Assembly: GCA_038217285.1 (NCBI GenBank)
Contig: JBBQPO010000003.1
Location: 1-56,415, forward strand
Length of the DNA stretch: 56,415 nt
Reading direction: 5' to 3'
From: Chthonomonadales bacterium
Lineage (GTDB): Bacteria; Armatimonadota; Chthonomonadetes; Chthonomonadales; Chthonomonadaceae
Shown: piece by piece, positions 18,637-50,538 of the stretch
Layout of the letters: each line of letters opens with the position of its first letter
Numbering within the stretch: the first letter of the stretch is position 1
Program-made: the position numbers and the translations under genes
The notes under the pieces: model-generated
Databases searched by the model: none
What the model was told of the DNA's origin: nothing
Seen by the model: the letters and a program-made list of their open reading frames with translations, nothing else

Positions 18637-20415
18637 ATGGTAATAGCACGCAAAAGCCTCGGCGACTATCTGGTAGAAAAAGGATATGCTTCTGCTCAGG
18701 AGATCGAGGACGCAAAAAAAGCACAACATTCCACACATGGTGACCTTGCCAAGATTCTCGTAGACCTGGGACTCAATCCCACCCATGTCTATGAAGCCAA
18801 GGCACATGAGCTCGGCCAGCCGTTTGTAGACCTCACCGTCTATAAGCCGGATCAGAGCGCGCTGAACGTCGTCCCCGCCCATGTCGCGACACGTCACAAT
18901 GTCCTGCCGGTCAAGAAAGACGGCAACATCCTCTATGTGGCGATGGCCGACACCAACAATATTACGGCTGCCGACGACCTTCGCCTGGTTTCGCGCTGCA
19001 CCGTGCGCGGCGTTCTCGCGGTGCCGGACCATATCACCGATGCCATTGCCCGCCTCTACGGGGGCACGGGCGGCGGAGAGATCAGCGCCAACCGAACCGG
19101 GATGAACCCGAACAAAGACAGCACAGACCTCACCAACTCCAGCATGGCGGGCGACATGAAAGAGGCGATGGCCCGCTATAGCGCGGAGAAGAACACCGAC
19201 ATCGAAACCGACGAGAACGCCCAGGGTGTCGACGGCTCCGATGACGCCCCCATCGTCCGCCTCGCCAACACGATCATTCAGCAGGCGATCAAAGAGCGCG
19301 CTTCGGACATCCATATCGAGCCGGGCACGAAGAACATGCGGGTCCGTTACCGAATCGACGGCGTTCTGCACGAAGCCATGCCGATGCCGAAATATCTGCA
19401 GATGCCGCTGACAGCCCGCTACAAGATCCTCTCCGAGATGAACATCGCCGAGCGGCGTGTCCCGCAGGACGGCCGTATCCCGATCCGCTACGAGAACAAG
19501 GACTACGACCTCCGCGTCTCCTGTCTGCCCAACCTGTTCGGTGAAAAGATCGTCATGCGTATTCTGGACAAGAGCAGCATCATGATCGGTCTGAACAAAC
19601 TCGGGTTCACGCCGGATATGCAGGCGCAGCTCGAAGAGCTCTCCAACCAGCCGAACGGAATGCTGCTCTCCACGGGTCCGACCGGCTCCGGCAAGACCAC
19701 CACGCAGTACTCGCTTCTGAACCGCCTCAACACGGTCGGGGTCAACATCCTGACGGTCGAAGATCCGTGCGAATACCAGTTGAACGGGATCACGCAGGTG
19801 CAGGTGAACAAGAAGGCGGGCCTCGACTTCGGCAAAGCGCTGCGCTCGTTCCTGCGGCAGGACCCGGACATCATCATGGTCGGAGAGATGCGCGACCTGG
19901 AAACGGCCGAAATCGCCATTGAATCGGCGCTTACCGGTCACCTTGTGCTCTCGACCCTGCATACCAACGACGCCCCGTCCGCCACGATCCGCCTCATCGA
20001 CATGGGAATCGAACCATTCCTTATCGCGGCGACGGTCATGGGCATCCTGGCGCAACGCCTCGGCCGCAAAATCTGTGCGAACTGCAAAGAGACCTACGAA
20101 GTGGCCGGCGCCGACCTGAAGCGCTTCGGGTTCCGGCCGGAAGATCCCGGTGAGATGGTCACCCTGGCACGTGGACGCGGCTGCGAAATGTGCCGACACA
20201 CCGGCTACAAAGGTCGTATCGGCTTCTACGAGCTGATGCGCATGAACGCGGAAATGGCGGAAATGGTCGTGCGACGCGCCCCGCTCGGCGACCTGAAAGA
20301 GGCCGCCAAAGCCAACGGCATGAAGGAACTCAAAGAGGACGGCCTCATCAAAGTTCTGGCGCAGCAGACCACGCCCGAAGAGGTCATGCGCGTCGTCTTC
20401 ACCGCCGGTTACTAA
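18637..20415 (+). CDS. pilB: Type IV pilus extension ATPase (PilB/GspE family)
   Basis: MshEN-like N-terminus, ASDIHIEP, RVPQDGR, GPTGSGKTT, TVEDP, RQDPDIIMVGEMRD, TGHLVLSTLHTND, CxxC...CxxC. Confidence 0.95.
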   Translation: MVIARKSLGDYLVEKGYASAQEIEDAKKAQHSTHGDLAKILVDLGLNPTHVYEAKAHELGQPFVDLTVYKPDQSALNVVPAHVATRHNVLPVKKDGNILYVAMADTNNITAADDLRLVSRCTVRGVLAVPDHITDAIARLYGGTGGGEISANRTGMNPNKDSTDLTNSSMAGDMKEAMARYSAEKNTDIETDENAQGVDGSDDAPIVRLANTIIQQAIKERASDIHIEPGTKNMRVRYRIDGVLHEAMPMPKYLQMPLTARYKILSEMNIAERRVPQDGRIPIRYENKDYDLRVSCLPNLFGEKIVMRILDKSSIMIGLNKLGFTPDMQAQLEELSNQPNGMLLSTGPTGSGKTTTQYSLLNRLNTVGVNILTVEDPCEYQLNGITQVQVNKKAGLDFGKALRSFLRQDPDIIMVGEMRDLETAEIAIESALTGHLVLSTLHTNDAPSATIRLIDMGIEPFLIAATVMGILAQRLGRKICANCKETYEVAGADLKRFGFRPEDPGEMVTLARGRGCEMCRHTGYKGRIGFYELMRMNAEMAEMVVRRAPLGDLKEAAKANGMKELKEDGLIKVLAQQTTPEEVMRVVFTAGY

Positions 20416-20422
20416 ATCGAAT

Positions 20423-20467
20423 CGAACCCTTGCCTCCTTCCCTAGACGGGAAGGAGCCGGGGGTTCG
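20423..20467. repeat. Palindromic REP-like hairpin between the two pilB genes
   Basis: CGAACCC..CTCCTTCCC-TAGAC-GGGAAGGAG..GGGTTCG. Confidence 0.6.
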
Positions 20468-20504
20468 GTCTGCGGCGGGGGCGCTTTCAGAAAGAGGCAC
20501 GACG

Positions 20505-21968
20505 ATGGCACTGCTTTCGTGGCTGAACCGCAACTTTCGAACGAGCCTTCTTTCCGCACCGTTGGCCGCTATGGCCGACGGTGCGGAAGGCGTTTCTGTC
20601 GTGCATCCCATGGTAACGGAAGGGACACCGCAACCGGAGAAATCTGTTCCTGCCGAAACGCCTGCGCCCGCTGATGCCGTAAGTGCGTCCGAGGAAGCGA
20701 CGGACCCCCTGCGCTACATGAAAGAGGCGATGGCCCGCTACGCTGCGGAGCCGTATTCTGAACCTGACTCCGACAAAGGCATGACAGATGGCATTGGTGG
20801 CGATAACGCCCCTATTGTCCGCCTCGCCAACACGCTCATTCAGCAGGCTATCAAAGAGCGCGCTTCGGACATCCATATCGAGCCAGGCACGAAGAACATG
20901 CGGGTCCGCTACCGAATCGACGGCATTCTGCACGAAGTCATGCCGATGCCGAAATATCTGCAGATGCCGCTGACGGTCCGCTACAAAGTCCTTGCCGGGA
21001 TCGACATGGCGACGCATCGGGGCCTGCCGCAAGAGGGACGCATTCCGGTCCGCTACATGGGTTCCGATTACAGTATTCGCGTCAATACGCAGCCGACCCA
21101 TGATGGCGACCATATTACGTTTCACATCGATAGTATGGAACGCATTCAGCGCGGTCTTGACCAACTGGGTTTTACGCCGAATGTGCAGGTGCAACTGGAA
21201 AAGCTTCTCGACCGGCAGCGGGGGCTAGTGTTAATCGCGGGACCCGCCGGTTCCGGAAAGACGACTACGCAATACTGTCTGGGGAGCCGATTGAGCCGTG
21301 TTGGTGTTCATATCGCAACGGTCGAAGAGAGAGCGACGCATCGCCTGCCCGGCACGACACAGATTGTGGTCGATCGGCTGGATAGTGGAACACTGGCGGC
21401 GTCCATTCGCATGGCGCTTCAGCACGATGTCGATGTGATGTGCATCAGCGACATCCGAGACAAGGCCACGGCGCAGGCGGCGCTGGATGCGGCTGCGAGT
21501 TCCTTGGTCATTGCGACGGTACACGGAGACGAAGCGCTTTCCACACTCGTGCGCTTGACAGCAATGGGACTCGATCCCGGCCTGATCGCAGAGACCATCT
21601 GCGGTGTCGTGGCACAGCGGCTTGTACGCAAGCTCTGCACCCACTGTAAGGAGACGTACGAAGTAGCAAGCAAGGATCTGCGCTCCTTTGGTCTTCGATC
21701 AGAAAACCCGGAGGAGAGTGTCACCCTGGCGCGAGGCGTCGGGTGCGAGTATTGTCGTCAGACGGGCTATTACGGTCGTCTCGGCCTCTATGAGTTGTTC
21801 CGCTGGGATCCTGCGCTTCGGAAGATGTTTGCCGACCGGGTGCCGCTTCCTCACCTGAAAGAGGCTGCTCTCGGGAATAATCGCATGGAAGATTTGAAAG
21901 CGGATGGCCTGGTGAAAATCCTTACCCAGACGACGACTCCAGAGGAAGTCTTGCGCGCCTGTGACTGA
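20505..21968 (+). CDS. Second PilB-like protein with a degenerate ATPase site (487 aa)
   Basis: AGAGG RBS and ATG 20505; Walker A GPAGSGKTT and the Zn motif are kept; Asp box TVEERATH, Walker B QHDVDVMCISDIRD and His box SSLVIATVHGDE are altered; no MshEN domain. Confidence 0.85.
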   Translation: MALLSWLNRNFRTSLLSAPLAAMADGAEGVSVVHPMVTEGTPQPEKSVPAETPAPADAVSASEEATDPLRYMKEAMARYAAEPYSEPDSDKGMTDGIGGDNAPIVRLANTLIQQAIKERASDIHIEPGTKNMRVRYRIDGILHEVMPMPKYLQMPLTVRYKVLAGIDMATHRGLPQEGRIPVRYMGSDYSIRVNTQPTHDGDHITFHIDSMERIQRGLDQLGFTPNVQVQLEKLLDRQRGLVLIAGPAGSGKTTTQYCLGSRLSRVGVHIATVEERATHRLPGTTQIVVDRLDSGTLAASIRMALQHDVDVMCISDIRDKATAQAALDAAASSLVIATVHGDEALSTLVRLTAMGLDPGLIAETICGVVAQRLVRKLCTHCKETYEVASKDLRSFGLRSENPEESVTLARGVGCEYCRQTGYYGRLGLYELFRWDPALRKMFADRVPLPHLKEAALGNNRMEDLKADGLVKILTQTTTPEEVLRACD

Positions 21969-22154
21969 GCCGCCCCTAAAGGAGCGGCCTGATGCGGTAA
22001 GACCCCTGAAGGGGCCTGGGATTGCTGGCAGAGGTTATAATCTCGCCGTGAGAGGATACTTCCAGTCGTACTGCCCAAACGTAAATACACACTTGCGTCG
22101 GCCCCAGCCCCATTCATGGGGCTTACGAAAGACAGACCGCTCCTTTAGGGGCGG
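21951..22154. mobile_element. REPIN/MITE-like nested inverted-repeat element, copy 1
   Basis: Outer IR CCGCCCCTAAAGGAGCGGCCTG / CAGACCGCTCCTTTAGGGGCGG; inner IR TAAGACCCCTGAAGGGGCCTGGG / CCCAGCCCCATTCATGGGGCTTA; second copy at 24961. Confidence 0.8.
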
Positions 22155-22169
22155 GCCATCGTGCGCTTC

Positions 22170-22198
22170 TTGACAAAGACGTCAAAGTGAAGAATACT
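22170..22198 (+). promoter_or_regulatory. Possible sigma70-type promoter for pilT-pilC
   Basis: TTGACA-N17-AATACT. Confidence 0.5.
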
Positions 22199-22321
22199 GT
22201 AGTTAAGTGTGTGAGATCGGAATCGAGGCATTCCGGAAGTAATGAGAGAGCTGCTGCGCCGTTGCCTGTGGCGACCCGGAAAGGGCGTCGGGGCCGGCGG
22301 CATTCGTCGGGAGAAAATAAC

Positions 22322-23617
22322 GTGTCTAACAACCAGTTTCCAAATAACCCGAATCAGCCTGGTCAGGGCTATCCGCAGCAGCCGCAGGGGCAGCCCAACT
22401 ATGGGCAGCCCCAGCCGCCCGGAGTGCCCGCGATGCCGGGCGCACCCGGTATGCCGGGAGGACCAGCGGTCCAGGCCGTACAGATACAGTCCGCCGCTTC
22501 GGCGCGGCCCTTCGCGCTCGACGACGCCCATATCGACGATCTGCTGCGCGCCATGCACGAAAAAGGCGCGTCCGACCTGCATATCGCCATTGGTATTCCC
22601 CCGATCATTCGCGTCGATGGCGCGCTGGTTCCCATGCCCTGGGAGAAGATGAGCCCCCAGGCCGCGCAGCGGCTTATCTACGACATCCTGACCGACGAAC
22701 AGATCCAGCGCTTTGAAACCGATTACGAACTCGACTTCTCCTATCAGTTGGCCCGTATCGCCCGCTTCCGCGTCAATGTCTTCCGCGACAAGGGCAACTG
22801 CGCTATGGCCTTCCGGCAGATCCCGCAGAAGATTCCGACGCTCAAAGACCTGCAGTTGCCGCCGCTGCTCGAAGAGTTGACCAAGCTGCCCCGCGGCCTT
22901 GTCCTCGTCACAGGCCCGACCGGCTCCGGCAAATCGACCACGCTCGCCGCGATGATCAACCATATCAACAACGAAGAGAGCAAGCATATCATCACGATCG
23001 AGGACCCGATCGAATACCTGCATACGCACAAGTTCTCGGTCATCAATCAGCGTGAAGTCGGCCAGGACACCAAGGAGTTCAAGAACGCGCTGCGCGCCTC
23101 CCTGCGCGAAGACCCGGATGTCATCCTGGTCGGTGAAATGCGCGACCTCGAAACCATGCAGATGGCCGTCTCCGCCGCAGAAACAGGCCACCTTGTCTTC
23201 GCCACCCTGCATACCAACTCGGCGGCGACCTCGGTCGAACGTATCGTCGACTCTTTCCCGGGCGGGCAGCAGGAGCAGGTGCGTCTGCAGCTCTCCAACA
23301 ACCTGCAGGCCATTCTCTGCCAGCAGTTGATTCCCCGCGCCAATCAGCCCGGACGAACCTGCGCGCTGGAGATCATGCGCGCCAGCCCGGCCATTCGAAA
23401 CTTAATTCGTGAAGCCAAAGCGCATCAGATTACGTCTATGATCCAAACCAGCGGAAACATGGGTATGCAGACCATGGACCAGTGTCTCCGCGACCTCTAC
23501 GTGCGTGGTGTCATTTCGCTTGACGAGGCCATTACGCGCGCCATGAACCCAGCCGAGCTTGAGAAGATGATCAAGACCTCGACGACGCCCCAACCCGGCC
23601 AGCCCGGCTATCGGTGA
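22322..23617 (+). CDS. pilT: Type IV pilus retraction ATPase
   Basis: GGAG RBS and GTG 22322; GASDLH, GPTGSGKSTT, IEDPIE, LREDPDVILVGEMRD, AETGHLV..TLHT, AIRNLIRE. Confidence 0.95.
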   Translation: MSNNQFPNNPNQPGQGYPQQPQGQPNYGQPQPPGVPAMPGAPGMPGGPAVQAVQIQSAASARPFALDDAHIDDLLRAMHEKGASDLHIAIGIPPIIRVDGALVPMPWEKMSPQAAQRLIYDILTDEQIQRFETDYELDFSYQLARIARFRVNVFRDKGNCAMAFRQIPQKIPTLKDLQLPPLLEELTKLPRGLVLVTGPTGSGKSTTLAAMINHINNEESKHIITIEDPIEYLHTHKFSVINQREVGQDTKEFKNALRASLREDPDVILVGEMRDLETMQMAVSAAETGHLVFATLHTNSAATSVERIVDSFPGGQQEQVRLQLSNNLQAILCQQLIPRANQPGRTCALEIMRASPAIRNLIREAKAHQITSMIQTSGNMGMQTMDQCLRDLYVRGVISLDEAITRAMNPAELEKMIKTSTTPQPGQPGYR

Positions 23618-23638
23618 TGATTCCCAGGAGGAAATCCA

Positions 23639-24892
23639 ATGCCTACCTTTCAGTACACTGTTCGTGATGCTACCGGGGCGGTCCGCACCGGAACCTCGGA
23701 AGCCGAAAGTCAGGACATTCTGAAGCGCCGCTTGATCGAGCAGGGCTTCTCCGTCAACGATGTCAAACAGACGGCCGCCAACAAAAAGAAGGCTGGCGGC
23801 GGTTTCGGGCGCGTCAAACTCAAAGACCTTTCGATCTTCTGCCGACAGTTCTCTACCATGGTAGACGCTGGCGTCTCGCTCGTGCGCTCTCTGGACGTCC
23901 TGGGCGAACAGACTCAGAGCCCGAAACTCAAGCGTATCATTCGTGAAATCCAGGTCGAAGTCGAAGGCGGTCAGACGCTCTCGAAATCGATGGCGAAATA
24001 CCCGAAGGTGTTCAGCAACCTGTTCGTCGGTCTGGTGCGCGCCGGAGAGGTCGGTGGTGTACTCGAAGAAGCGCTGCAGCGACTGTCCCACTTCCTGGAA
24101 AAGGATATGGAACTGCGCCGCAAGGTAAAAGCCGCCATGACCTATCCGGTCATCGTTCTGTTTGTCGCCGTGGCGATCGTTCTAGGCCTCTGCACCTTCA
24201 TCGTGCCGAAGTTCATCGACCTGTTCAAAGAACTCGGCGTGAAGGAACTGCCCTGGATGACGCAGGTGCTGGTCGACTTCTCCAACTTCCTCAAAGACAA
24301 GTGGTGGATCGCCCTGATCATCGTCGTCGTCGTCACGATGTCCCTCAAGTACGCTGGAACGACCAAGCTGGGCCGCCGCGTCATCGACCGCCTGAAGCTG
24401 AAGGTGCCGGTCTTCGGGCCGCTGGGCCATAAGATCTGTCTGGCCCGGTTCTCGCGCACCCTCTCGACGCTGCTGGTCTCGGGCGTCCCCATTCTCCAGG
24501 CGATGGAGACGGTGGCCGCAACCGTCGGCAACGAGATCATCAGCGAAGCGATTATGAACGCCCGTGCCCGTATCCGTGAAGGTGAGCGCATCAACGAGCC
24601 TCTGGAGAAGAGCAAGATGTTCCCGCCGATGGTCGTGCATATGATCTCCATTGGGGAAGAGTCTGGAGCCCTCGATCAGATGCTCTCCAAGGTGGCCGAA
24701 TTCTACGAGGGTGAGGTGGACTCCACGATCCAGTCGCTGGCCTCCGCTATCGAGCCGGTCATGATCGTACTACTCGGTTTCTGCGTCGGCTTTATCGTCA
24801 TCGCCATGTTCATGCCCCTGCTGAGCGTTATCAGCAACCTGTCCGGCAGCGGCGACGACGATGCAAAATCCGGCGGCGCTACCAAGGAGTAG
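23639..24892 (+). CDS. pilC: Type IV pilus platform protein (PilC/GspF)
   Basis: AGGAGG RBS; FCRQFSTMVDAG, AGEVGG, AMTYP, FSRTLSTLL.SGVP, IGEESG, IEP. Confidence 0.95.
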   Translation: MPTFQYTVRDATGAVRTGTSEAESQDILKRRLIEQGFSVNDVKQTAANKKKAGGGFGRVKLKDLSIFCRQFSTMVDAGVSLVRSLDVLGEQTQSPKLKRIIREIQVEVEGGQTLSKSMAKYPKVFSNLFVGLVRAGEVGGVLEEALQRLSHFLEKDMELRRKVKAAMTYPVIVLFVAVAIVLGLCTFIVPKFIDLFKELGVKELPWMTQVLVDFSNFLKDKWWIALIIVVVVTMSLKYAGTTKLGRRVIDRLKLKVPVFGPLGHKICLARFSRTLSTLLVSGVPILQAMETVAATVGNEIISEAIMNARARIREGERINEPLEKSKMFPPMVVHMISIGEESGALDQMLSKVAEFYEGEVDSTIQSLASAIEPVMIVLLGFCVGFIVIAMFMPLLSVISNLSGSGDDDAKSGGATKE

Positions 24893-24960: not shown

Positions 24961-25170
24961 TTGCGCGCATGTGACTGAGCCGCCCCTAAAGGAGCGGCCT
25001 GTTGGGGAAGGTTAAGGCCCATAAATGGGCCTGTGATGACTGGCAGGAAGGTCCAGTGCGCCCAAACGTCGATGCTCTCGGCCTGATTATGGAAGCGCAA
25101 GGCTAGACTGACGTTAGACCCAGCCCCATTTATGGGGCTTACCGTATCAGACCGCTCCTTGAGGGGCGGC
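24961..25170. mobile_element. REPIN/MITE-like nested inverted-repeat element, copy 2
   Basis: First 41 nt match copy 1 at all but one base; same outer and inner IRs, diverged centre. Confidence 0.8.
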
Positions 25171-25200
25171 GATTTCTATGATGAAGATGAAAAACGGCTT

Positions 25201-26280
25201 ATGAGCGGACCTGTCTGGTTCTGGACGACCACGGTGTTTCTATTCGGCATCTGCATCGGCAGTTTCCTGAATGTTGTGATCTATCGCCTGCCACTGGGCA
25301 TTTCGGTGGCCGAACCGCAATGGTCGTTCTGTCCGAACTGCCGTGCACGGTTGACCGGCCTCGATCTAGTTCCCCTCTTTAGTTTCCTCCTGCTCGGGCA
25401 GAAATGCCGCACCTGCAAACAGCCTATCTCCTGGCGCTACTTCTCCGTCGAACTGCTGACGGGCCTGCTGTTCGCCGCGCTCTTCCTGCAGTTTCAGAAC
25501 GACGTGCCGACGGCGGTCGCTCTGCTTCTCTTCGCCGCCCTGCTGGTACCCATCTATTTCATCGACCTCGCCACGTTCACCATTCCTGACTCGCTGAATC
25601 TGTTGGCCTTCGTCGTGGCGGTCGGTCGCGATCTCGTCGGCATCCTGCGGCACGAGACGGGCTACGAGCTGCTCTGGGGATGGCTGCCGCGCTCGATTGC
25701 GGGGGCGGTGATCGGTGTGCTGATATTCGGCGCGATTCGCCTCGCTGGCTGGCTCTGGCGGCGGCAGGAGGCGATGGGGCTTGGGGACGTGCTGCTTGCG
25801 CGCGGCATGGGCGCGATGCTGGCTCTGCTCGTGCCCGCAGGCTCGAGTGTGCTGCGACTGTTCCCGATATGGATCCTGCTCGCCTGCCTTTCCGGGCTGA
25901 TCGTCGGCCCCGCCCTGATCTTTTTACGCCGCCGAACGCATATAGAAGCGGATTCGGGCGAAACGGACAGAGGAAACACCGACACGACAGGCGAAGAAAT
26001 AGAGTCGGACGACTCGTCATTGGGACGGGAACTGACGGACATCGGCTACTGCCTGATCCTGGGGGATGCCTGGGAGCTTTTACGCGGCCTGCTGCGCCGC
26101 GAACCGGCCTCGGCCGTCGTGGCTGCGGAACCCGAAGACGACTGGCAGCCCGCCCCCAGCGCGATCCCGTTCGGGCCGTTTCTGGTGATCGGTTTTCTGG
26201 CGACGGTCTTCATCGGGGAGTGGGTGACTTTGCACTACCTGGCGTTCGCCTTCCCGAAGCCGCCCATGCCGCCGTACTGA
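25201..26280 (+). CDS. pilD: Prepilin peptidase / N-methyltransferase
   Basis: IGSFLNVVIYRLP, CPNC...CRTC, FID...IPD, MGLGD, IPFGPFL. Confidence 0.93.
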   Translation: MSGPVWFWTTTVFLFGICIGSFLNVVIYRLPLGISVAEPQWSFCPNCRARLTGLDLVPLFSFLLLGQKCRTCKQPISWRYFSVELLTGLLFAALFLQFQNDVPTAVALLLFAALLVPIYFIDLATFTIPDSLNLLAFVVAVGRDLVGILRHETGYELLWGWLPRSIAGAVIGVLIFGAIRLAGWLWRRQEAMGLGDVLLARGMGAMLALLVPAGSSVLRLFPIWILLACLSGLIVGPALIFLRRRTHIEADSGETDRGNTDTTGEEIESDDSSLGRELTDIGYCLILGDAWELLRGLLRREPASAVVAAEPEDDWQPAPSAIPFGPFLVIGFLATVFIGEWVTLHYLAFAFPKPPMPPY

Positions 26281-26331: not shown

Positions 26332-26389
26332 TCAGACGGTTCGGTGTGCAATACACCGCGTGCCACGCAGAGAGATAGGAAGGGACGTT

Positions 26390-27166: not shown

Positions 27167-27230
27167 GTTCCGACAACGCGGCTTCGGCCCGCCTGCCACA
27201 ATAGGTATGTACGCCTTCATGGAGAATATT

Positions 27231-41001: not shown

Positions 41002-44000
41002 ATGAGGTATAGAAGCACGCTTCTGCTCCGTAAGACCGGCCTGGGCGCACTCGTTGCGCTCTTCTTTGCGCTGGGAACCGGAGTGGCACAGGCGCAGTTG
41101 CCCGTGTTCGACGGTGTAGACTGGCTGTTGGACCGCGGCAACGTCAGCTTTACCGGCGCGCCGGTCTCCGGGATTCCTCTGCGTACCGGCGCAAACGACT
41201 TCAATAACGTGGCCAACAATCCAGGGCATGCCGTTCGCAAGTGGGTCTTTCCTCGCACTCTCGACCTCACCAACGGCTTCTCGACCACGCTGCCTACCGT
41301 CGTCGTTGATAACGCCAGCGCCTCAGATCCGCAAAACTTCCAGGACACGAACAACAATATCGTTCGAACGTCCCCCGGATACGCGATGCAGATGGGCCTC
41401 AATCCGCAGCAGATGGCGCATAGCTACCTGACGGCGGGCTGGGCGCTGCCACTGACGCCGGCGGATCAGTCCGTGAACGACTACCGCTCTCCGCTTGGGG
41501 GCTTCTCTAGAGGGAACGATCCCACTCAGAACTACAATTTCGATTACGCCTACGTGCTGGCCACCCACAACGACTTTGCGGTGCAGGATCCCAACACCAA
41601 TACGACCCGCCCCGCCAGTCCCGGCGAGTTGGCGGCGATGCCTTACGCGCCCAGCTACGTCTACAATGCCGTACAGACCGCGCTGGTGAACGATCCCAAC
41701 CCCCGGTCCACCTATTCGACCGGCACGTACAATCTGCCAAAAGGCAACTACGGCATCGACATCTACTCGCCGGGCGACGGCACCAACGACGTCGGCGTCA
41801 TCCGTCCCAACGTCAACCGCGCTTTTGTTCGCGTGAGTTGGAAGAACACCGTCGATGTCAATGGAAACATCGTCAAGGCGAACACGGAAAATCCGACATT
41901 CAGCCGTATCTATGAGGTTCCTCTGAATCAGGCGGGCTGGATCCATGTTCAGGGCGGCGGCAATGCCCTCCCGGTCTTTCCCTTTGACCCTGCGAACCCC
42001 CAGGATCAGATCACGGTCACAATCTATAGCGTCACCCCGGACACCTACTTGGGCGCGAGCGATCCGGTCTTTGGCGCTGCGCCTGTGGTGACCGCCGACG
42101 CGGTACGTTTCGTGGCGCATCTCGCCGGCACCCTCGCGTTGGGTCCCATCGCCGCCGACGGGCGTATCCTCGGTCCGGTCGTCGGTACCAACAAGATTCT
42201 GAAAACGGTCGGCGGCACTCCTATCGCAGATATCCAGCCGTTGATCTTCTTCGCCCGCGAAGAGGTTGTGGCCGACCCGAATCTCATTATCGCGGTCGAT
42301 CCGACACAGCCTATCAGCCCCGGCAACCCGCTTATCGCGGATCCTACCGCGACGGTGACGGCCCCGGTCTTCTACTGTCTCGACAACCAGAACGGCAATG
42401 TCCTCGGCGGAGATTCCGATGGCTTCCGGCGCTCGATCGACCAGGTGCGTTGGCGTTATGTCGGTACCGCAGATGCCGGTAACACCACGGGTACGAGTTC
42501 GGCCTCCCCGATGATCGCGAATGTTCGGTGCCGTGACGGCAACACGCGGACCATGGTCTACTTTATGACCACGACGGCGGCGCAGACTCTGGGCCATGTC
42601 TATGCGTTCGACGCGGCAGGGGATCGCTTTGCGGTCGGCACTCGCCCGGCGAAGACGACGCAGAACTACTGGACCTATCCTTCCTACCGCCCGCTGACGC
42701 CTGCGGAACTGGCGACCAACAAGCTCCCGACCGAGGATCACGATCCGAACTACAAAAACTTTGTACTGGGAACGTATCCCGCTCCTGTCTGGGGCGCGGA
42801 TATTGCAGATCCGTTCTTCCACTACGACGGCGAGATCGTGCCGAATCCGAGCCAGGCGGGTGACTTCGTCGTGCGCAGCGATACCCATCTGCCGCTTTTT
42901 GGTGGCATGAACGGTTCGCCGGTCATTATCGACGACCCGAGCAATCCGGCAGGCGGACAGATACTCGTCATCGGCAACCTGAACGGACACGTCTATGCGT
43001 TCGATGCCGGGGGACGCGGCGACTTCGACCCGGCGAACAACGCCGTGCTCGGTACGACGCAGCGGATCTGGACCTGGCCGCACTTCGGCGCCGACGCCTA
43101 CTATGCGAATAATCTGATCGGCACCAACCGGATCGCGAACGAGCCGGATCTGGGGACCATCGCGAGTTCGCTCACCTACGATCCGAACTATATCGCGGCC
43201 GGCCTGACAACGAAACCGATTCTGGTACCGGGCGGCGATGGTCACCTCTATGCCATCAACGCGCCGCACGACGTTCTTGTCAGCTACAACCCGAAGACCT
43301 CCACAGTGGTCTGGCAGGATCGACGCAACTGGGTCTATCCCGCCCTGGACAGTTCCGGCCTCGGCGGCGCTCTCAGCACGGTCGCGATCTTCCAGCCGAA
43401 CGGCGCGGCGATTCCTTACGCTTACTTCACCTGCCAGGGGCGTGCGTATGCCGTGCAGGAAGTCCCGCCCGTCATCGCCCCAACTCCGCCGACGATCAAC
43501 CCGCTGAAATGGGTCTATCCGAATACGCCGAATCCGCCCTTCGCAGATCCGAACGACGATACGACGGCCCCTCTTGATCCCGGTTTCAATGGTACCGCGC
43601 CTGTTTTGTTGAGCCAGGGTGCGCTCAATGCCAGCGGCGCTTTCGCGGGCAGCCCCGCCGTCAATAACGACTTCTGTTATGTGCTGGAGGGCAACAGCAC
43701 CATCATCGGACTGAACGCGTTCGACGGTACGCTCCTCGCCTCCGGCACGACGAGTACGGGCTCTGCGACCTCCGCCTCCCCGATCGCAACCATGCTGACC
43801 GGGCTGCTGGGCGACGCATCGACGCTCGTGCAGACAACGAACACACAGCCTGCCATGGTCTTCGCAGACGATTCCGGCGCGATCTTCGGGCTGGCCGCCC
43901 GACCGGATCCCGGAAACGTTGGACCGCTCGGAGGCGGCCTGCTCGGGCAGATCTGGCACCACTACGAAGTGCAGCAGTCGCGCATCGCGGCGGCCTCCCT

Positions 44001-47000
44001 CGTGAACGGCCTGATCATCGAAGGCGATGAAGGCGGACAGCTCCGCGCCTACGGCCTCGGCACAGGCATCAACGGTCTGGGGGAAACCCTGGGGAGCGGC
44101 GAGCCTGTCGAGCCTACTCTGGGGCCGGGCGCGCTCAGCATCGACATGCGTGTCCTCGACGTTTTCCCGAAGCTCGATAGCGTTGGGAATCCCGTTTACG
44201 ACAGGATGATGCTGCGCGTCCCCGGAGGCAAAACGGCGAACCGCAAGAATGCAGGAGGCGGCTACGCCAACTCCGCGCTGCCGGCTTCCGGCAATATCAT
44301 CAACGGGAATACCATGTACGCCGCAGACTGGGGCGACTCCGTCTATGTAGCCGCTGCTGGGGTCTACCATGCGCAGCCACGGGATACGCCCGGAGCCACG
44401 GGGCCGCCACGGATCACGGTCGTCTTTACCCTGACGACTTCTGCGGGTGTCCTGACCTCCCCACCGATCACGGTCCCCCCCACGACACAGGCGCTTCACG
44501 GCATGGCCGGTGAGTTCTGGCCGGACGATCTGGCGATCCTGACGCCAGGCGAGCACGATGGGCTGTCGATCTACGGTTACGATGCCGCGTCGATGATGAG
44601 TTCCGTGCTGACCGGACGCAACAATAACGTCTATCCCTGGATCGCAAAGTATGCGTTTTTCATCAATCCCGGTTCCAATGCCACCAATGGCGCCGCTGGC
44701 GTTATAAACTTCGTGCCCGGCTCGGGCGGCTATCGTATTACCGCCATTGCCACGCTCGAGCAGTCAGGGGAACCGTCCACAAGCGTGGGGGCCCGCTCTG
44801 TTGGTCAGTCGGACTACACGGGTCTGCAGACAGGCTTCCCGGCCTCCTTTGCCACGCTCGGCAGGCCCCGCACCTTCGCCGTGACGAACCCTATCGCCAT
44901 TACGACGCGCGGGACCACCAATATGAACGACATGACCGGCGCTGCCAACCGCAACGTCATCGGCCTCTTCCCCAGCATCAACGCGGGGATCAACGGCAAC
45001 CCGGGCGTGCGGCCAGCCAATGCAGGTGAGCTGATCAACAACGGCAACCGGCAGAACGTTCCGGGGTTCGCCTCGGCCAACTCAGCGGTTAAAGCAATCT
45101 ATGCGCCCTTCCCGATGGTGCCCGACGGTTCGACTTCGACCTACAGCGCCGTCGATAACGCCGGCAACAGAAAAGACGCCTTCTTCATATTCGATCGCAG
45201 CAACCTCTCCCAGAGGGGGGGCAGGACACTATCGGTGCAGATTCTGACGAGCAAAGCCGCCTGGCATGGGTGGTCGCCTTCCGCCAATCCGACCGTCACC
45301 GGCTCCTCTGTCATGAACCCCCTGCCCTGGGAACAGTTCCCGAACGATAGGCAGGACTCGCTCGACTATCCGAGCATTCCGACCTCGGCGTTCTCGATCC
45401 TGTCGCCCAAGGGAGAGGATGCGGTCGCCGGTCTGGTCGCGCTCAACCGTCCGAAATACGTGGGCGGTCTCGATCCGGCGGTAACACGTCAGTTGGTAGA
45501 AACGCCGTTCACGATGCAGTTGAAGGTGCCGCTTCACCAGCCTGCGAACGTCAACTATGGTATCCATACCTTCAACGGCATCTCGTTCGGCTCGCCCTAC
45601 CGCGATATGTCCGGAGTCAATCGGGGAGACACCACGGCCGGGAACGCCTATGATCGCCACATCCTCGGTCCCCTGATCACCAACACCGGGAATCAGGCGG
45701 CGCTGGGCAGCGGACCTGTCTATCCTGCCGGCGGTTACATCGCCGGGCTCACGGTGCGGGCGCTGCCTTCGGGTACCCCGCGCCAGAGCAGCATCTACGA
45801 TCCACGCGTCCTGTACAACACGGCGCGCGGCCAGGGCGGCGCTGCTGCTACCGAAGCGGTGCGCGCTCTGGACGTCGGAATCGCGGTGCCGCCGGGCGTC
45901 AAGATGCGGGTGGCGGAAACCACCCTGAATCTCGGCAAACTGCCGCACGGCACAGGTTACACGCCTCTGACAGATCCGAACAATGCGCGCTCGTTCCAGG
46001 TGCCCTTCGCGCCGAATATGACCTCGGGACCCGGACCTTTCTGGGATGAGCCGACTCTGGGCGGAGAGTTCTTCCGACCGTTCACGCTCACCAACGAAAG
46101 CAACATCAACCTCGTCGATGTGCGAATCGCCAAACTGCTCGGGCAGAACTTCTCTCAGATCGATGGGCGTACGCTGTCGCAGTACACCGACATCCGGTCG
46201 GGTCTGGAGAATACCGCCGTGGCGGCCTCGCTGAAGTTCTTCAGCGATCAGGTCAACAGCCAGTCGATCCCCCCGCTCTATGCAGTGCCGTTCAAGAACG
46301 TGCCGGGCGCGCAGGGCGTCGGTAACGCCGGTGTCGCCTCCTCTCTGGACCACTACAGCAGCTCCAGTAATCCGGTGACGTCGCTGTTCGCGGAGCGGGC
46401 GATGTGGCCGTTCCCCAATAACTTCGTGGTTCAGGCCGATATCGACTCGGCCAACCAGAACTACGGCGCGCTGCTGCCGACCGCGAACAGTCCGGCCAAT
46501 GGCATCTATGGCTGGTTCAACGGCGTTCAGCCGCAGCCGACCGTTGGCAAGCCCCGCGTCGGGGATGCCCAGGGCCGTGTGGCGACCATTCCGGACCAAC
46601 CCTATAGCGGTAATGCTACCTTCCCGCGACCCCGTATCGGGCTGGCAATCCCGCTCGGTACGCCGGTCGGAACCTACTCCGCGCCTGTCTATGCCTTCGA
46701 AGACAACACGCCGCTGCAGTGGCAGGAGTGGCTGAGCCACTACTCGAAACCGGCGGGCGTCACGCAGAACTATCCGGTGCCCCATGACGGCATTCTGAAC
46801 GTCAGCCCGACAGGCTCGCCTTCGGAAGGATACACCGATCCCGGCTTCGTTCTGACGACGACGGTGCGGGAGTCGAAGCTGACTCGTCAGCCCACCTTCG
46901 GCACCCTGTCGATGCTCGATCCGTTCGGTATCTGGAACGATCCCAAACATCCGGAACTCCCGGTGCCACCGGGTTCCGACATCATCCCGGCCGTCTATAT

Positions 47001-49275
47001 GGCGCCCGGTACCAATGCCAACGTCTTCAACCGAAACCTGTTTATGTATTGGCCCACCAACCGCCGCCAGAACGTCAACGATACCTATATCGACCATGTC
47101 AATCGGACAGGTTTCCCGAACGGTACGGGACTCGTCACGTCGTTCGCGCCTTATGAACTGGCTGTAAGCAGTGTGCCTGCGCCGTATAGCGCGGTCGCCG
47201 GCACCAGCGTCGTCATCGGGGATTTCGACTTCGGGAATGTCCTGGGTGTCACCGGATCGGGCGCTCCGCTCTCCGCCTGGTGGACCCTGCCCGGCTGGCC
47301 GCTCCCCGGCTTCCTGCAGCAGCACGACAACACGACGGTCTACAACCTGTTCCCTTCGACTCCGTCGGGCACGATCCCCTTCCTGCCGGGGACCGCGAAT
47401 GTGGACACGATGCGGCTGACGAATCCGGCGGTAGCCCCAGCGCTCGACTTCTCTTCGGGCTACACCAACCTGAACCCGAACCTCCAGGAGGCCTATCTCT
47501 TCTGGCAGGGACAGGTGGACAAGCTGACACAGGCCAACAGCGGACAGTTCCAGACCCGGGACTCCCGCCTTCACTGGACGCGCCTATTCGGCGGCTTTAA
47601 GCCCGGCGTACCGAACGGCCCGATCTACTCTATGCCCGACGATCCGGGGCTTACCAAGCTGGCGCCGAAGCCGCTGCTCGTCATTCTGCCGACGGCAAAC
47701 GGCGCTCCCGCCCAGAAGTTCCTCTATGCCTTCTGGCACGCGGGCAACCAGTCGAACGCCTCGATCTACTATAACGCGATGGTCACGACCAACCTGGGCG
47801 CGGCGTTCACCAATAACGAGTGGCTTACAGACGGCGGCAGCCCGGCCAAACCGCTCGGCGACCTCAAGCTCCCGACACCGGGCGCGCTGGTGTGGCAGAG
47901 CGATCCGGCCCCGGTCTTCCGACATATCCTGGATCCCTACGATCCGCTCCAGATACGGATGATCGATGTGATCGATGTCGTCTTCACCGGTGTGCTGAAA
48001 GGCCGCCAGACCGTGGAAACGCTGCTCAGTCGCTACCAGATCAACCGGAACACGCCGGTCAATCCAGGCGATCCGCCGGTCGGCTCTCTGACCCTGCTGC
48101 CGTTGCCGCAGGTCGTGGGTGAGGTATTGACCCGATTCGGAAACACCAACACCTTCCAGGCGCGAGACGCGGCCTGGGCGCTTGGAACCGGGCCACAAGG
48201 TACGCTCGTCACTGCGGCCACGGCGGCGAATCCCGTCGTCGATGGGGCCAGCCAGATCTCGATCTTCGGGATCCCCGGCGGACTGGGCAACGCACCGGTG
48301 CTTCTCAATGCGCAGGCCGCGCCCAAGCAGACCACAGCGCAGCTCGGCAGGTACGATCAGGCGTCGGGCCTCCTGATCTACGACTCCGCACTGGGCGGGC
48401 AGATCCTGGTCGATATGCGCTCGGGCACGATCCGCTTCCCGCAGGTCGCGCCAGGGTCGGCAGATCGAATTCAGGTCAGCTATACTCCGTTCGTCATGCG
48501 ACTCAACACCTCGCGGGACGATTCGAATATAGACCGCACTCAGGTGGCAAACTTCGGCGCTATACCATTGGCACCTGGCTTCAACCCGACGGCGTCCATC
48601 ACGTCGTCCGGCAGCAACGCCAGTCCGGTCGTCGTCTTCGACAGGGGGCGCAACCCGCGCACACTGCTCGCCGCGCCGCAGGTGGTCTTCCCGAACGGGG
48701 CGAACCCGACCCTGGACCGGATGTGGGTGCTCTATCGCAAGAGCGATCCAAGCGGGGTGGCAAAATCGACCATCTACTACAAGTCCATGCGGCTGATGGT
48801 CAAACTGCCCTATCCCGTTCGCCTCAGCTCTGCGGTGCTGAACGGCCTGCCGATCCCACAGCAGATCCTGCCCGTTTCGGTCACCAAGGTAGGTGGCGGC
48901 GCGGTCGGACCGTACGAGGTAGACTTCGTGCGGGGACGTATCTACTTCACGGAGGCAAACGAAAACAGCCACATCGTAGTGAACTACAACTTCTATGTGC
49001 CGGGAACCACGAACTTCGGTAACTCCGGAAATCTGGTCTATCGCGTGGCCTGGGGGGATGAGATAAGCACCTCGATTCAGCAGGGCGACCAGACGACGGG
49101 CGAGACGGTTCTGCCGACCGACTCGGCGGTGAGCGAAGGACAGGTCGCGGCCTTTAAGGATCCGTTCCTCGACAAGCTGTGGGTCTTCTGGAGCAGTACG
49201 CGCGCCAGTTCGACCGATCTCTATTTCGAGTCGATCGCACCGCAGTTCTACCCGACCTTCAGCAACCAGCGCTAA
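41002..49275 (+). CDS. Giant secreted beta-propeller/beta-sandwich protein (2757 aa), candidate adhesin or scaffold
   Basis: Sec signal ending AQA; GNYGIDIYSPG...VTADAVRFV golvesin-like module; repeated GHVYAFDA/GHLYAINA blades with W-x-Y/W-P; C-terminal LWVFWSSTR..TDLY. Confidence 0.8.
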   Translation: MRYRSTLLLRKTGLGALVALFFALGTGVAQAQLPVFDGVDWLLDRGNVSFTGAPVSGIPLRTGANDFNNVANNPGHAVRKWVFPRTLDLTNGFSTTLPTVVVDNASASDPQNFQDTNNNIVRTSPGYAMQMGLNPQQMAHSYLTAGWALPLTPADQSVNDYRSPLGGFSRGNDPTQNYNFDYAYVLATHNDFAVQDPNTNTTRPASPGELAAMPYAPSYVYNAVQTALVNDPNPRSTYSTGTYNLPKGNYGIDIYSPGDGTNDVGVIRPNVNRAFVRVSWKNTVDVNGNIVKANTENPTFSRIYEVPLNQAGWIHVQGGGNALPVFPFDPANPQDQITVTIYSVTPDTYLGASDPVFGAAPVVTADAVRFVAHLAGTLALGPIAADGRILGPVVGTNKILKTVGGTPIADIQPLIFFAREEVVADPNLIIAVDPTQPISPGNPLIADPTATVTAPVFYCLDNQNGNVLGGDSDGFRRSIDQVRWRYVGTADAGNTTGTSSASPMIANVRCRDGNTRTMVYFMTTTAAQTLGHVYAFDAAGDRFAVGTRPAKTTQNYWTYPSYRPLTPAELATNKLPTEDHDPNYKNFVLGTYPAPVWGADIADPFFHYDGEIVPNPSQAGDFVVRSDTHLPLFGGMNGSPVIIDDPSNPAGGQILVIGNLNGHVYAFDAGGRGDFDPANNAVLGTTQRIWTWPHFGADAYYANNLIGTNRIANEPDLGTIASSLTYDPNYIAAGLTTKPILVPGGDGHLYAINAPHDVLVSYNPKTSTVVWQDRRNWVYPALDSSGLGGALSTVAIFQPNGAAIPYAYFTCQGRAYAVQEVPPVIAPTPPTINPLKWVYPNTPNPPFADPNDDTTAPLDPGFNGTAPVLLSQGALNASGAFAGSPAVNNDFCYVLEGNSTIIGLNAFDGTLLASGTTSTGSATSASPIATMLTGLLGDASTLVQTTNTQPAMVFADDSGAIFGLAARPDPGNVGPLGGGLLGQIWHHYEVQQSRIAAASLVNGLIIEGDEGGQLRAYGLGTGINGLGETLGSGEPVEPTLGPGALSIDMRVLDVFPKLDSVGNPVYDRMMLRVPGGKTANRKNAGGGYANSALPASGNIINGNTMYAADWGDSVYVAAAGVYHAQPRDTPGATGPPRITVVFTLTTSAGVLTSPPITVPPTTQALHGMAGEFWPDDLAILTPGEHDGLSIYGYDAASMMSSVLTGRNNNVYPWIAKYAFFINPGSNATNGAAGVINFVPGSGGYRITAIATLEQSGEPSTSVGARSVGQSDYTGLQTGFPASFATLGRPRTFAVTNPIAITTRGTTNMNDMTGAANRNVIGLFPSINAGINGNPGVRPANAGELINNGNRQNVPGFASANSAVKAIYAPFPMVPDGSTSTYSAVDNAGNRKDAFFIFDRSNLSQRGGRTLSVQILTSKAAWHGWSPSANPTVTGSSVMNPLPWEQFPNDRQDSLDYPSIPTSAFSILSPKGEDAVAGLVALNRPKYVGGLDPAVTRQLVETPFTMQLKVPLHQPANVNYGIHTFNGISFGSPYRDMSGVNRGDTTAGNAYDRHILGPLITNTGNQAALGSGPVYPAGGYIAGLTVRALPSGTPRQSSIYDPRVLYNTARGQGGAAATEAVRALDVGIAVPPGVKMRVAETTLNLGKLPHGTGYTPLTDPNNARSFQVPFAPNMTSGPGPFWDEPTLGGEFFRPFTLTNESNINLVDVRIAKLLGQNFSQIDGRTLSQYTDIRSGLENTAVAASLKFFSDQVNSQSIPPLYAVPFKNVPGAQGVGNAGVASSLDHYSSSSNPVTSLFAERAMWPFPNNFVVQADIDSANQNYGALLPTANSPANGIYGWFNGVQPQPTVGKPRVGDAQGRVATIPDQPYSGNATFPRPRIGLAIPLGTPVGTYSAPVYAFEDNTPLQWQEWLSHYSKPAGVTQNYPVPHDGILNVSPTGSPSEGYTDPGFVLTTTVRESKLTRQPTFGTLSMLDPFGIWNDPKHPELPVPPGSDIIPAVYMAPGTNANVFNRNLFMYWPTNRRQNVNDTYIDHVNRTGFPNGTGLVTSFAPYELAVSSVPAPYSAVAGTSVVIGDFDFGNVLGVTGSGAPLSAWWTLPGWPLPGFLQQHDNTTVYNLFPSTPSGTIPFLPGTANVDTMRLTNPAVAPALDFSSGYTNLNPNLQEAYLFWQGQVDKLTQANSGQFQTRDSRLHWTRLFGGFKPGVPNGPIYSMPDDPGLTKLAPKPLLVILPTANGAPAQKFLYAFWHAGNQSNASIYYNAMVTTNLGAAFTNNEWLTDGGSPAKPLGDLKLPTPGALVWQSDPAPVFRHILDPYDPLQIRMIDVIDVVFTGVLKGRQTVETLLSRYQINRNTPVNPGDPPVGSLTLLPLPQVVGEVLTRFGNTNTFQARDAAWALGTGPQGTLVTAATAANPVVDGASQISIFGIPGGLGNAPVLLNAQAAPKQTTAQLGRYDQASGLLIYDSALGGQILVDMRSGTIRFPQVAPGSADRIQVSYTPFVMRLNTSRDDSNIDRTQVANFGAIPLAPGFNPTASITSSGSNASPVVVFDRGRNPRTLLAAPQVVFPNGANPTLDRMWVLYRKSDPSGVAKSTIYYKSMRLMVKLPYPVRLSSAVLNGLPIPQQILPVSVTKVGGGAVGPYEVDFVRGRIYFTEANENSHIVVNYNFYVPGTTNFGNSGNLVYRVAWGDEISTSIQQGDQTTGETVLPTDSAVSEGQVAAFKDPFLDKLWVFWSSTRASSTDLYFESIAPQFYPTFSNQR

Positions 49276-49289
49276 AAGGAGAGATGACC

Positions 49290-49327
49290 GCGGAGAGGGA
49301 CAAGAGAAGCCTCTTGTCCCTCTTCGC
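49290..49327 (+). terminator. Strong hairpin after the 2757-aa gene
   Basis: GCGGAGAGGGACAAGAG-AAGC-CTCTTGTCCCTCTTCGC. Confidence 0.65.
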
Positions 49328-49401
49328 TGTCGTATAAGTTTTTTAAAAACCACGACAGGGATGCGCGTCGAAAAGGACGCGGCATTCGAAAGGAGTTCTC
49401 G

Positions 49402-50538
49402 TTGAAGATAGGATACGGACTGGTCGCAGCGCTGGCGGCCGCTTGCAGCGCGTCGGTGATCGCCCCGACGCAGGCGCAAGGCGTCAAACCGGCGAAGACC
49501 GTCAAAACCGCCTTGGCACTGGTGCCTGGCGGGATCGCAAACGAAGTCGTAGGCAGCATCGGTGACAAGAAGTTCACCTTCGGCGAGGTGATTGCCCGCG
49601 TTCAGCAGGAGAATCCGAACGGGTTTAAGCAGACCGTGGCGCAGCTCATCGGGCTGGACGCCGCCTCGTCGCTCTATGGCCCGGTTCCGAAGAGCAGCTA
49701 TGCGGTGACCAAATCCCAGGTGCTGACCATGCTGCGCGAGAAAAACCCGCAGGTGTTGGGCGACGCACTGAAGACGATGCTCGAGTTCGAGGCGGTGGAT
49801 CGCGAAGTGAAAAAGCAGGATGTCGTCGTCACCATCGATCAGGTCGATAAGCGCATCGATCAGTTTTTGACGCTGCTGCGCAAACGAGGGCAGATTCCGC
49901 AGGGCGTGACCGATGCGCAGTTCCTGACGCAGAACCATGTCACCCGGACCACCCTGCGCAAGAACTTCATGGTGCAGGCAAAACTGTTCACCCTGATTCA
50001 GAAGGACTTCGTCGAGAAGCGACTGGGACACAAGCTGACGCCGGATGACTTCTTCAAATCCCGGCACATTCTCATCAAGGTGCCTATGCCGGTGCCCGGT
50101 CAGTCTGCGGCGGATGTGAAAAAGGCGGACGATGCGGCGCTGGCGAAGATCACCCAGATCGCGGCGGACATCGCAGCCGGCAAGAAAACCTTCGAAGTGG
50201 CCGCGAAGGAGAGCAGCGAAGACGACGGCTCCAAAGAGATGGGCGGCGAACTCGGCGTACAGATGCGCACGGTCTTCGTCAAAGAGTTCGAAACCACGTC
50301 GTATCAGTTGAAGCCGGGCGAGGTCAGCAAACCGATACGCTCGCAGTTCGGCTATCATATCATTCAGTTGGAGCAGCGTGGCACCGGCATTCCCGAGGAG
50401 GATCGGCAGGCCTATCTCGACAACTTCGAGTCGGGACAGATGCAGGTCTATCTGCGGGAGCTGATGACGCGATACAAAGCCGTCAACAAACTGGCTCGAC
50501 CGGCGCCATCGATGCCGATGATGATGCCGGGGCAGTAG
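49402..50538 (+). CDS. Parvulin-type peptidyl-prolyl isomerase / foldase (PrsA/SurA-like)
   Basis: AAGGAG RBS and TTG; signal peptide; RHILIK, FEVAAKESSED.GS...GGELG, VKEFE, VSKPIRSQFGYHII. Confidence 0.92.
   Translation: MKIGYGLVAALAAACSASVIAPTQAQGVKPAKTVKTALALVPGGIANEVVGSIGDKKFTFGEVIARVQQENPNGFKQTVAQLIGLDAASSLYGPVPKSSYAVTKSQVLTMLREKNPQVLGDALKTMLEFEAVDREVKKQDVVVTIDQVDKRIDQFLTLLRKRGQIPQGVTDAQFLTQNHVTRTTLRKNFMVQAKLFTLIQKDFVEKRLGHKLTPDDFFKSRHILIKVPMPVPGQSAADVKKADDAALAKITQIAADIAAGKKTFEVAAKESSEDDGSKEMGGELGVQMRTVFVKEFETTSYQLKPGEVSKPIRSQFGYHIIQLEQRGTGIPEEDRQAYLDNFESGQMQVYLRELMTRYKAVNKLARPAPSMPMMMPGQ

Follow-up and report, generated by a model that had tools for sequence, protein, structure and literature searches.

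A probable type IVa pilus gene cluster of the Armatimonadota with enlarged minor pilins and two giant secreted proteins

ComZ of Thermus combines a GspK-like pilin domain with a β-solenoid inserted before the last strand, and a position at the tip of the filament has been argued for it (PMC6561018). Cyanobacterial PilX shares this design and has been proposed to take over the capping role of PilY1; within it, the subfamily encoded at hps loci has the most extended solenoids (PMC13759059). A related scheme has been set out for filaments with PilI, PilJ and PilK genes, whose order is almost invariant: the C-terminal 10–12 residues of PilC/PilY1 are reported to supply the PilK-type pilin with an additional strand and to be required for assembly, MshQ, which is unrelated to PilY1 but occupies the same slot, is predicted to add its C-terminal strand likewise, and GspK provides the strand itself (PMC13533445, 2026). 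These papers and those cited below are drawn on for the parts of them that were available. Here, a cluster of type IV filament genes in a Chthonomonadales bacterium (Armatimonadota) is compared with these systems. It lies on contig JBBQPO010000003.1 of a 6.2-Mb draft genome (GCA_038217285.1, 95% complete); the whole contig, 56,415 nucleotides, was analysed and is called the window.

The cluster is probably the phylum's core type IVa pilus locus, carrying a hypertrophied priming or tip module that bears a very large adhesive head. It comprises thirteen co-directional open reading frames (ORFs) on the plus strand between positions 18637 and 50538, with gaps of about 20–240 bases; no supported ORF was found on the opposite strand of this stretch. 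Domains were called with Pfam and NCBIfam, and the Sec-type signal peptides of the two giant proteins were judged by eye. The pilins and giant proteins are encoded as follows (the arrow marks the prepilin cleavage site).

26360–27166, plus strand: prepilin, up to 268 aa (G↓FTLIE; N_methyl, 6.9e-10)
27207–28220, plus strand: paralogous prepilin, up to 337 aa (A↓FTLIE; N_methyl, 3.5e-08)
28338–30275, plus strand: minor pilin in the PilV/GspI position, 645 aa (G↓FSLIE, Glu5 present; PilV and N_methyl matched weakly)
30310–32532, plus strand: minor pilin in the PilW/GspJ position, 740 aa (G↓FTLVE)
32587–35745, plus strand: predicted cap pilin of the PilX/GspK/ComZ class, 1052 aa (RG↓QMLIV(ALA), no Glu at +5; last in the pilin row)
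35794–40905, plus strand: secreted 1703-aa protein in the PilY1 slot (Sec-type signal peptide, no pilin N-terminus)
41002–49275, plus strand: secreted 2757-aa protein of largely unrecognised fold (Sec-type signal peptide, no pilin N-terminus)

The gene junctions are tight (about 50–100 bases in the window), and all five large genes, like pilD, are single-copy in the genome. The long ORFs are intact and syntenic throughout the phylum and so are not chance ORFs.

A full-length single match to the 1052-aa protein was present in 38 of 41 genomes, the window's own included, and in all 32 of high quality. Ten relatives from three families of the order were picked for their long contigs out of the 37 that matched, and about 37 kb around each match was compared. 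All ten keep the order pilB, pilT, pilC, pilD, pilin(s), followed by the homologues of the 645-, 740-, 1052-, 1703- and 2757-aa proteins. Species-representative genomes were also scanned with an alignment of the 1052-aa family. This confirmed 277 of 341 candidate stretches, and 80 were kept, 71 of them named in Armatimonadota (Chthonomonadales, Fimbriimonadales, Armatimonadales and Capsulimonadales) and nine named only as 'bacterium'. Synteny was counted in the 41 loci of at least 19 kb among these 80. Homologues of the pilin and of the 740-, 1052- and 1703-aa proteins stand in order in all 41, the 645-aa homologue is present in 40 and a match to the 2757-aa protein in 35. Upstream, pilC and pilD were found in 29 loci, pilD alone in two and no motor gene in ten. 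As these ten lack an upstream pilBTCD match, the tight link is that of the pilins with the giants, not with the motor. In 53 of the 55 loci with enough sequence, the 1703-aa homologue is followed within 1.5 kb by the start of a co-directional ORF that encodes 900 aa or more, and 44 of these 53 ORFs could be assigned to the 2757-aa family by BLAST. The cap pilin profile was found in 292 of 301 Armatimonadota genomes at least 80% complete, in 247 of the 252 of high quality and in 159 of 162 genera, its matches being weak in three families. An earlier note on this DNA had joined the giant genes to the pilins in one machine, and these counts show that the two are indeed syntenic elsewhere. The note had named Armatimonadota as a phylum to compare, and in this it was correct.

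The cap pilin was modelled with AlphaFold2 from a 51-sequence alignment (pLDDT 87.0, pTM 0.88). The model has a 57-residue helix (residues 25–81), a small sheet, a very large β-rich region and a last strand at 1040–1045. The top solved match in Foldseek was ComZ of Thermus thermophilus (6qvi, E 1.6e-5). VIA-align superposed the two with a Z of 10.7 and an rmsd of 4.4 over 262 aligned residues between model positions 182 and 1040, the next matches reaching a Z of 7.7 at most; these were sandwiches of carbohydrate-binding-module type, at roughly 450/630–819 and of middling score. By its modelled fold, the protein is probably a ComZ-type cap pilin, in which a pilin helix and sheet carry a large β-rich head that includes a carbohydrate-binding-module-like sandwich. 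No PilX_N, T2SSK or other pilin Pfam domain was matched in 13 family members, and the family profile found neither ComZ nor GspK among the PDB sequences. The family measures about 860–1156 aa (fragments left out), and the pattern R-G-Q-(T/S)-L occurs in most of the N-termini listed for the family (60). That pilX is fused to its downstream neighbour in some relatives was considered and rejected: the 2683-aa open frame with one TAG is two in-frame adjacent genes.

The 1703-aa protein holds several recognisable domains. Residues 37–1195 were modelled (AlphaFold2, 34 sequences; pLDDT 78.6, pTM 0.85). The first 330 or so residues resemble GATase1/ThuA-like proteins (3rht, Z 12.2, rmsd 3.8, 198 residues aligned), in agreement with a match to DUF4159 (26.9 bits, cut-off 25.9). 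Residues 349–1156 of the model match eight-bladed propellers of the PQQ/BamB/YxaL type (Z 16–19.7) with 300–360 residues aligned, so that about 480 residues of the propeller region are insertions. In residues 1185–1703, NHL repeats were matched for 27 of the 30 members of the family, and as a profile this part matches NHL-derived six-bladed designer propellers (Pizza6, E 2e-15). An atlas look-up, which serves as a lead only, also pointed to PQQ/BamB (0.84) and ThuA (0.80). PF05567 was matched in neither giant at E ≤ 0.01 and nowhere in the genome at E ≤ 1, and PilY1 was not among the 50 matches listed for the 1703-aa model by Foldseek, the VIA second look and VIA wide. The protein is in the PilY1 slot, yet by sequence it is no member of the PilY1 family.

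Outside its domains, the best-conserved short stretch of the 1703-aa protein is the extreme C-terminus. Across all classes sampled, the family (1488–1864 aa, fragments left out) has 57 unique tails, the majority of which end in [LI]x[EQK][QK]Px[FSY][AS][DEI]R plus 0–3 residues. Because both slot and conserved tail match the scheme described for tip adhesins (in the available parts of PMC13533445), the protein may be a non-homologous functional analogue of PilY1, PilC and MshQ, with its C-terminus docked to the pilin trimer. A complex prediction with the 860-aa PilX-like homologue of one locus (L106) and the last 120 aa of the neighbouring 1703-family protein, each supplied with an alignment, gave 0.02 and 0.00 against a mark of 0.32, which speaks neither for nor against binding.

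The 2757-aa protein gave no Pfam and no NCBIfam match. Golvesin_C is present in three of 11 members of its family, and profile positions 649–753 match PQQ-type designer propellers weakly (E 5e-5). The look-up returned nothing for residues 1100–2757 (0.76). Searches of the PDB sequences with both giants and the cap pilin, as single sequences and as profiles, gave nothing useful. The earlier note had spoken of two giant propeller proteins. This holds for the 1703-aa protein, with its PQQ/BamB-type and NHL-type propellers; for the 2757-aa protein a propeller is weakly indicated by the profile match just mentioned. No similarity between the two was seen with hhalign (probability 1.4%), and thus they are not detectable paralogues. 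A search with the C-terminal 1658 residues of the 2757-aa protein found 58 other proteins of 1579–3276 aa, the named ones all being 'hypothetical protein' from Chthonomonadaceae or Chthonomonadales. Four relatives of about 3200 aa (P0033–P0036) carry further Pfam entries and appear to have gained extra domains. The C-terminal sequence '..DKLWVFWSSTRAGTTDLY..APQFYP..' is conserved in the ten relatives.

The 645- and 740-aa proteins are pilins at their N-termini. N_methyl was matched in all 36 members of the 645-aa family and all 32 of the 740-aa family; other families were never matched in more than one of the 36 (two chance-level matches in single members) and in one of the 32 (again at chance level), and T2SSI, T2SSJ and the PilW Pfam domain in none of either. 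For the 645-aa pilin, the PilV model TIGR02523 reached 20.4 bits against a cut-off of 52.2, through the N-terminus only. When the 740-aa family was aligned with the genome's own GspJ-like protein (hhalign), the N-terminal helix alone aligned; the C-terminal '..VRNLQ(H/R)' is conserved in this family. The families measure 599–815 aa (two fragments left out) and 593–838 aa (fragments left out), respectively. The N-terminal pattern and the gene order suggest that the two proteins are PilV/GspI-like and PilW/GspJ-like.

The two mid-size prepilins that precede them are 34% identical to each other. Matches of the 268-aa protein to GspG/PilA models are confined to its N-terminal 60 aa; it may be a fibre subunit or an adaptor. 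A prepilin of 242–340 aa occupies its place across the phylum, and one family of the order has one gene in place of the two.

The remaining genes of the cluster encode a motor, a platform, a prepilin peptidase and a foldase.

18637–20415, plus strand: PilB-type extension ATPase, 592 aa (T2SSE, 9.7e-131; N-terminal MshEN, 8.8e-19)
about 20499–21968 (start uncertain), plus strand: degenerate PilB paralogue, PilB2 (T2SSE only, no MshEN)
22187–23617, plus strand: PilT retraction ATPase (TIGR01420, 498.6 bits against a cut-off of 319.1, residues 116–457)
23639–24892, plus strand: PilC platform protein (T2SSF twice, 5.4e-70; top NCBIfam match Thermus-type PilC)
25132–26280, plus strand: PilD prepilin peptidase, 382 aa (A24_N_bact, 1.4e-30; Peptidase_A24, 8e-08)
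49402–50538, plus strand: secreted SurA/PrsA-like peptidyl-prolyl isomerase (PPIase) of PPIC type (Rotamase, 7e-23)

PilB scored 628 bits with the NCBIfam PilB model and 582 bits with GspE, both below the equivalog cut-offs, and the high NCBIfam score of PilC was likewise below its cut-off. PilC is nearly as high on the GspF model. In the NCBIfam scan of the locus, the HpsB and HpsC models gave weak N-terminal matches. PilB2 is 50% identical to PilB and retains Walker A and the Cys tetrad, but its Asp box, Walker B Glu and His box are altered, so that it is likely to be catalytically dead; no separate PilB2 copy was found in the ten relatives compared. A hairpin of 19 pairs (12 of them G-C) at 20550–20590, just 3' of pilB, falls within the PilB2 ORF, in its 5' part as that ORF is drawn here, which makes the start of the ORF uncertain. 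The hairpin could be a terminator or an attenuator; taken as a whole, scans for promoters and terminators gave counts no higher than those in shuffled sequences. PilT, which lies within the cluster in all ten relatives, has a Pro/Gln/Gly-rich N-terminal extension of about 115 residues (22187–22530) whose length differs between relatives (query cover 0.76–0.98). PilD is long, with an acidic insert close to its C-terminus. A tblastn search of the genome with PilD gave no other match, and PilD may therefore serve all of its type IV filament systems. The PPIase was found at this position in only one of the ten relatives, a genome of the same genus.

The thirteen ORFs agree in coordinates and size with those of the earlier note, which had also taken the locus for a type IV filament system with a retraction ATPase, as the PilT match confirms. 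It had reported pilM, pilN, pilO, pilQ and a small major pilin as absent. This is true of the window; PilM, secretins and small PilA-like pilins were found on other contigs. On contig C19 PilM (PF11104, 3.4e-42) is followed by three ORFs without a Pfam match, a 629-aa secretin and aroB, and we infer that this PilM and the PilQ-type secretin serve the present locus. Contig C198 (locus L130, 290–8423) has a small PilA-like pilin, a PilM/PilN fusion and a further secretin. Beside this pilin lies a gene for a 1088-aa secreted protein with DUF7948, SBBP and FG-GAP repeats, in what is a second pilus-like cluster.

A type II secretion system (T2SS) is encoded separately. Contigs C314, C357 and C300 hold a GspD-type secretin, a GspE-like ATPase, GspG (148 aa), GspH (199 aa), a GspJ-like protein (320 aa) and a PilM-like protein, with the GspD-type secretin, T2SSG, GspH and a second GspE-like ATPase on C314 and C357. 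The ordinary size of these pseudopilins argues that the locus in the window is not that T2SS. At least 45 prepilin-like ORFs were counted in the genome, mostly of 211–345 aa from the cleavage motif, four having mature parts of 119–124 aa; they share only the N-terminal 70 or so residues with the two mid-size pilins of the locus. A published genome paper on Fimbriimonas gives 79 PulG-like genes.

By the families to which these parts belong, PilB powers extension and PilT retraction, PilC is the platform and PilD the prepilin peptidase. The PilI-J-K order and the fold of the cap pilin suggest that a trimer of the PilV-, PilW- and PilX-like pilins would prime assembly of the fibre and then remain at its tip, each subunit bearing hundreds of extra residues. 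The double-propeller protein of 1703 aa would dock to this trimer through its conserved C-terminal peptide. More tentatively, the 2757-aa protein might belong to the same structure, as a second pilus-borne or pilus-dependent surface protein. The whole would be a retractile fibre whose very large adhesive head attaches to surfaces, polymers or other cells.

Several observations weigh against this picture. None of the proteins of the locus has been observed on a pilus. So large a head, once folded, may be unable to get through a secretin. The globular parts of the PilV- and PilW-like proteins match no pilin family, the 2757-aa protein has no informative match, and the 1703-aa protein lacks PF05567 and has an eight-bladed propeller of PQQ/BamB type, that of PilY1 being reported as seven-bladed. 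The modelled cap pilin appears to end in its own strand, like GspK and ComZ; under the published scheme this would make a strand donated in trans unnecessary and favours a cis arrangement. Finally, the pilin that builds the fibre may be one of this locus or one of the small PilA-like ones, whose genes are on other contigs.

The strand of the cap pilin would suit an arrangement in which the three large pilins prime an ordinary pilus, the giants being co-transcribed exoproteins or surface proteins, perhaps exported as piston-like cargo. Both giants have Sec signal peptides and no pilin N-terminus, the 1703-aa protein holds enzyme-like as well as binding folds (GATase1/ThuA-like, PQQ-type and NHL-type), and in this genus a periplasmic foldase follows them. 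We nevertheless regard this as unlikely: the gene junctions are tight, the giants remain linked to the pilins in the ten of 41 loci without adjacent motor genes, and the extreme C-terminus conserved throughout the phylum is typical of the tip adhesins of this slot (as described in the available parts of PMC13533445). That the locus builds a short pseudopilus for the secretion of proteins or polysaccharide, in the manner of a T2SS or of cyanobacterial Hps, is a good deal less probable still. T2SS have been reassigned to Armatimonadetes in a survey of the superfamily (available parts of PMC6668835), PilB and PilC score almost as high on GspE and GspF, the HpsB and HpsC models gave weak N-terminal matches, and it is at hps loci that the PilX proteins with the longest solenoids are encoded (PMC13759059). 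Against this, the cluster includes PilT, both here and in the ten relatives, a separate T2SS, whose pseudopilins are of normal size and whose secretin is of GspD type, is encoded on other contigs, and no glycosyltransferase gene was found among those of the locus. It is hardly credible that this is a categorically new surface organelle which has borrowed only the motor of a type IV filament. About 6900 residues over five genes could be assigned to no family beyond the pilin N-termini, and the 2757-aa protein is mostly unrecognised, but the gene order, the N-terminal motifs and the fold of the cap pilin fit the known scheme of PilI-J-K plus adhesin.

A type IVa pilus with an enlarged tip, the preferred reading, has partial counterparts in several described systems. 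ComZ, which stands with PilA1–3 among the minor pilins of Thermus, also lacks the canonical Glu5 and has a large β-rich domain set in a pilin fold. Its chains are of about 500–520 residues (PDB 6QVI), compared with 1052 here, and no sequence match was found. The partner pilins in Thermus are small, unlike those of this locus, and the available text of the ComZ paper gives five ORFs (pilA1–4 and comZ) and no giant secreted protein (PMC6561018). ComZ binds DNA, whereas the likeness of the cap pilin to it is one of predicted fold. In cyanobacterial PilX, a bulky solenoid is set between the two final strands of a proposed fibre cap, and the PilV that co-varies with it has an elongated insert. This PilX is from another phylum, no NCBIfam Hps model matches the 1052-aa protein, and cyanobacteria are said in the available text to lack proteins in the PilY1 slot, in contrast to the two giants here (PMC13759059).

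In Pseudomonas, Neisseria and Myxococcus, PilY1/PilC are tip adhesins that go with FimU-PilVWX in retractile type IVa pili, in which the V-W-X genes are likewise followed by that for a large secreted propeller protein with a conserved extreme C-terminus (available parts of PMC13190605). The present locus differs in having no PF05567, an eight-bladed PQQ/BamB-type propeller with an NHL propeller, a GATase1-like N-terminal domain and pilins 3–5 times larger. In the MSHA pilus of Vibrio cholerae, MshQ is large, unrelated to PilY1, encoded directly after PilI-J-K homologues and predicted to dock by its extreme C-terminus (PMC13533445); it has about 1200 residues compared with the 1703 of the protein likened to it here by gene slot and tail. 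The GspI-J-K tip of the T2SS has the same gene order and a cap subunit without Glu5 that has its own last strand, but in the T2SS there is no counterpart to the retraction ATPase of this locus, its subunits are far smaller, and the genome encodes one separately. Membership of the Verru_Chthon cassette (proteins A–D), an uncharacterised set found in environmental phyla whose pilin-like members have long extensions, was considered and rejected: TIGR02596 gave 17.6–23.1 bits against a cut-off of 70 and TIGR02599 17.1–18.8 bits against 256.5, through the N-terminal 24–72 residues only.

These likenesses also bear on the earlier note. Its observation that the PilV-, PilW- and PilX-like proteins are oversized stands, as they are 3–5 times the usual size. 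Such pilins are not always small, though, ComZ and the solenoid-bearing cyanobacterial PilX being published exceptions, and to call the locus an undescribed surface machine was to overstate the case: motor, platform and peptidase are ordinary type IVa pilus parts, and the cap pilin appears akin to published proteins. A search of the literature on Armatimonadota pili, covering titles and abstract openings and largely outside subscription journals, found no treatment of the enlarged pilins or of the giants.

The cluster is flanked by the shikimate dehydrogenase gene aroE (17527–18432) on one side and by an unassigned ORF and then an ABC transporter gene on the other. aroE precedes pilB in nine of the ten relatives; the tenth stretch begins inside pilB. 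Shikimate-pathway genes were thus seen beside pilus genes twice, aroE here and aroB by the PilM–secretin cluster (locus L131 of contig C19). The ORF after the PPIase (50654–51478, 274 aa) has no Pfam match; an ORF 52% identical to it is in the same place in the same-genus genome. Elsewhere in the window, genes for an ECF-type sigma factor, a 197-aa ORF (6411–7004) and a MucB/RseB-like domain protein lie at 5697–8328 and appear to be unrelated to the pilus cluster.

A bolder possibility, which we consider doubtful, is that the three enlarged pilins and both giants form a single tip organelle of about 750 kDa, too bulky to pass a secretin when folded. If so, Armatimonadota would build or deploy a pilus head in a distinct way, by assembly outside the cell or as a grappling device that stays exposed permanently and that PilT reels in, and the 2757-aa protein would represent a new class of pilus-borne giant adhesin, capturing polymers or other cells.

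The tips of type IV pili determine what a cell adheres to, takes up and senses. To our knowledge they have been studied almost only in Proteobacteria, in Thermus and, recently, in cyanobacteria. Here a whole phylum of which little has been cultured keeps a tip module that exceeds those studied so far several-fold in size; its genes are single-copy and were present in almost all of the genomes sampled. In the conserved secreted proteins some 4,400 residues are thereby flagged as being without known function, as are large parts of the three pilins. The system also offers a natural test of two recent proposals, namely that a solenoid-bearing PilX replaces PilY1 as the cap and that tip adhesins dock by a C-terminal strand: in it, a ComZ-like cap occurs together with a PilY1-slot protein whose tail is conserved.

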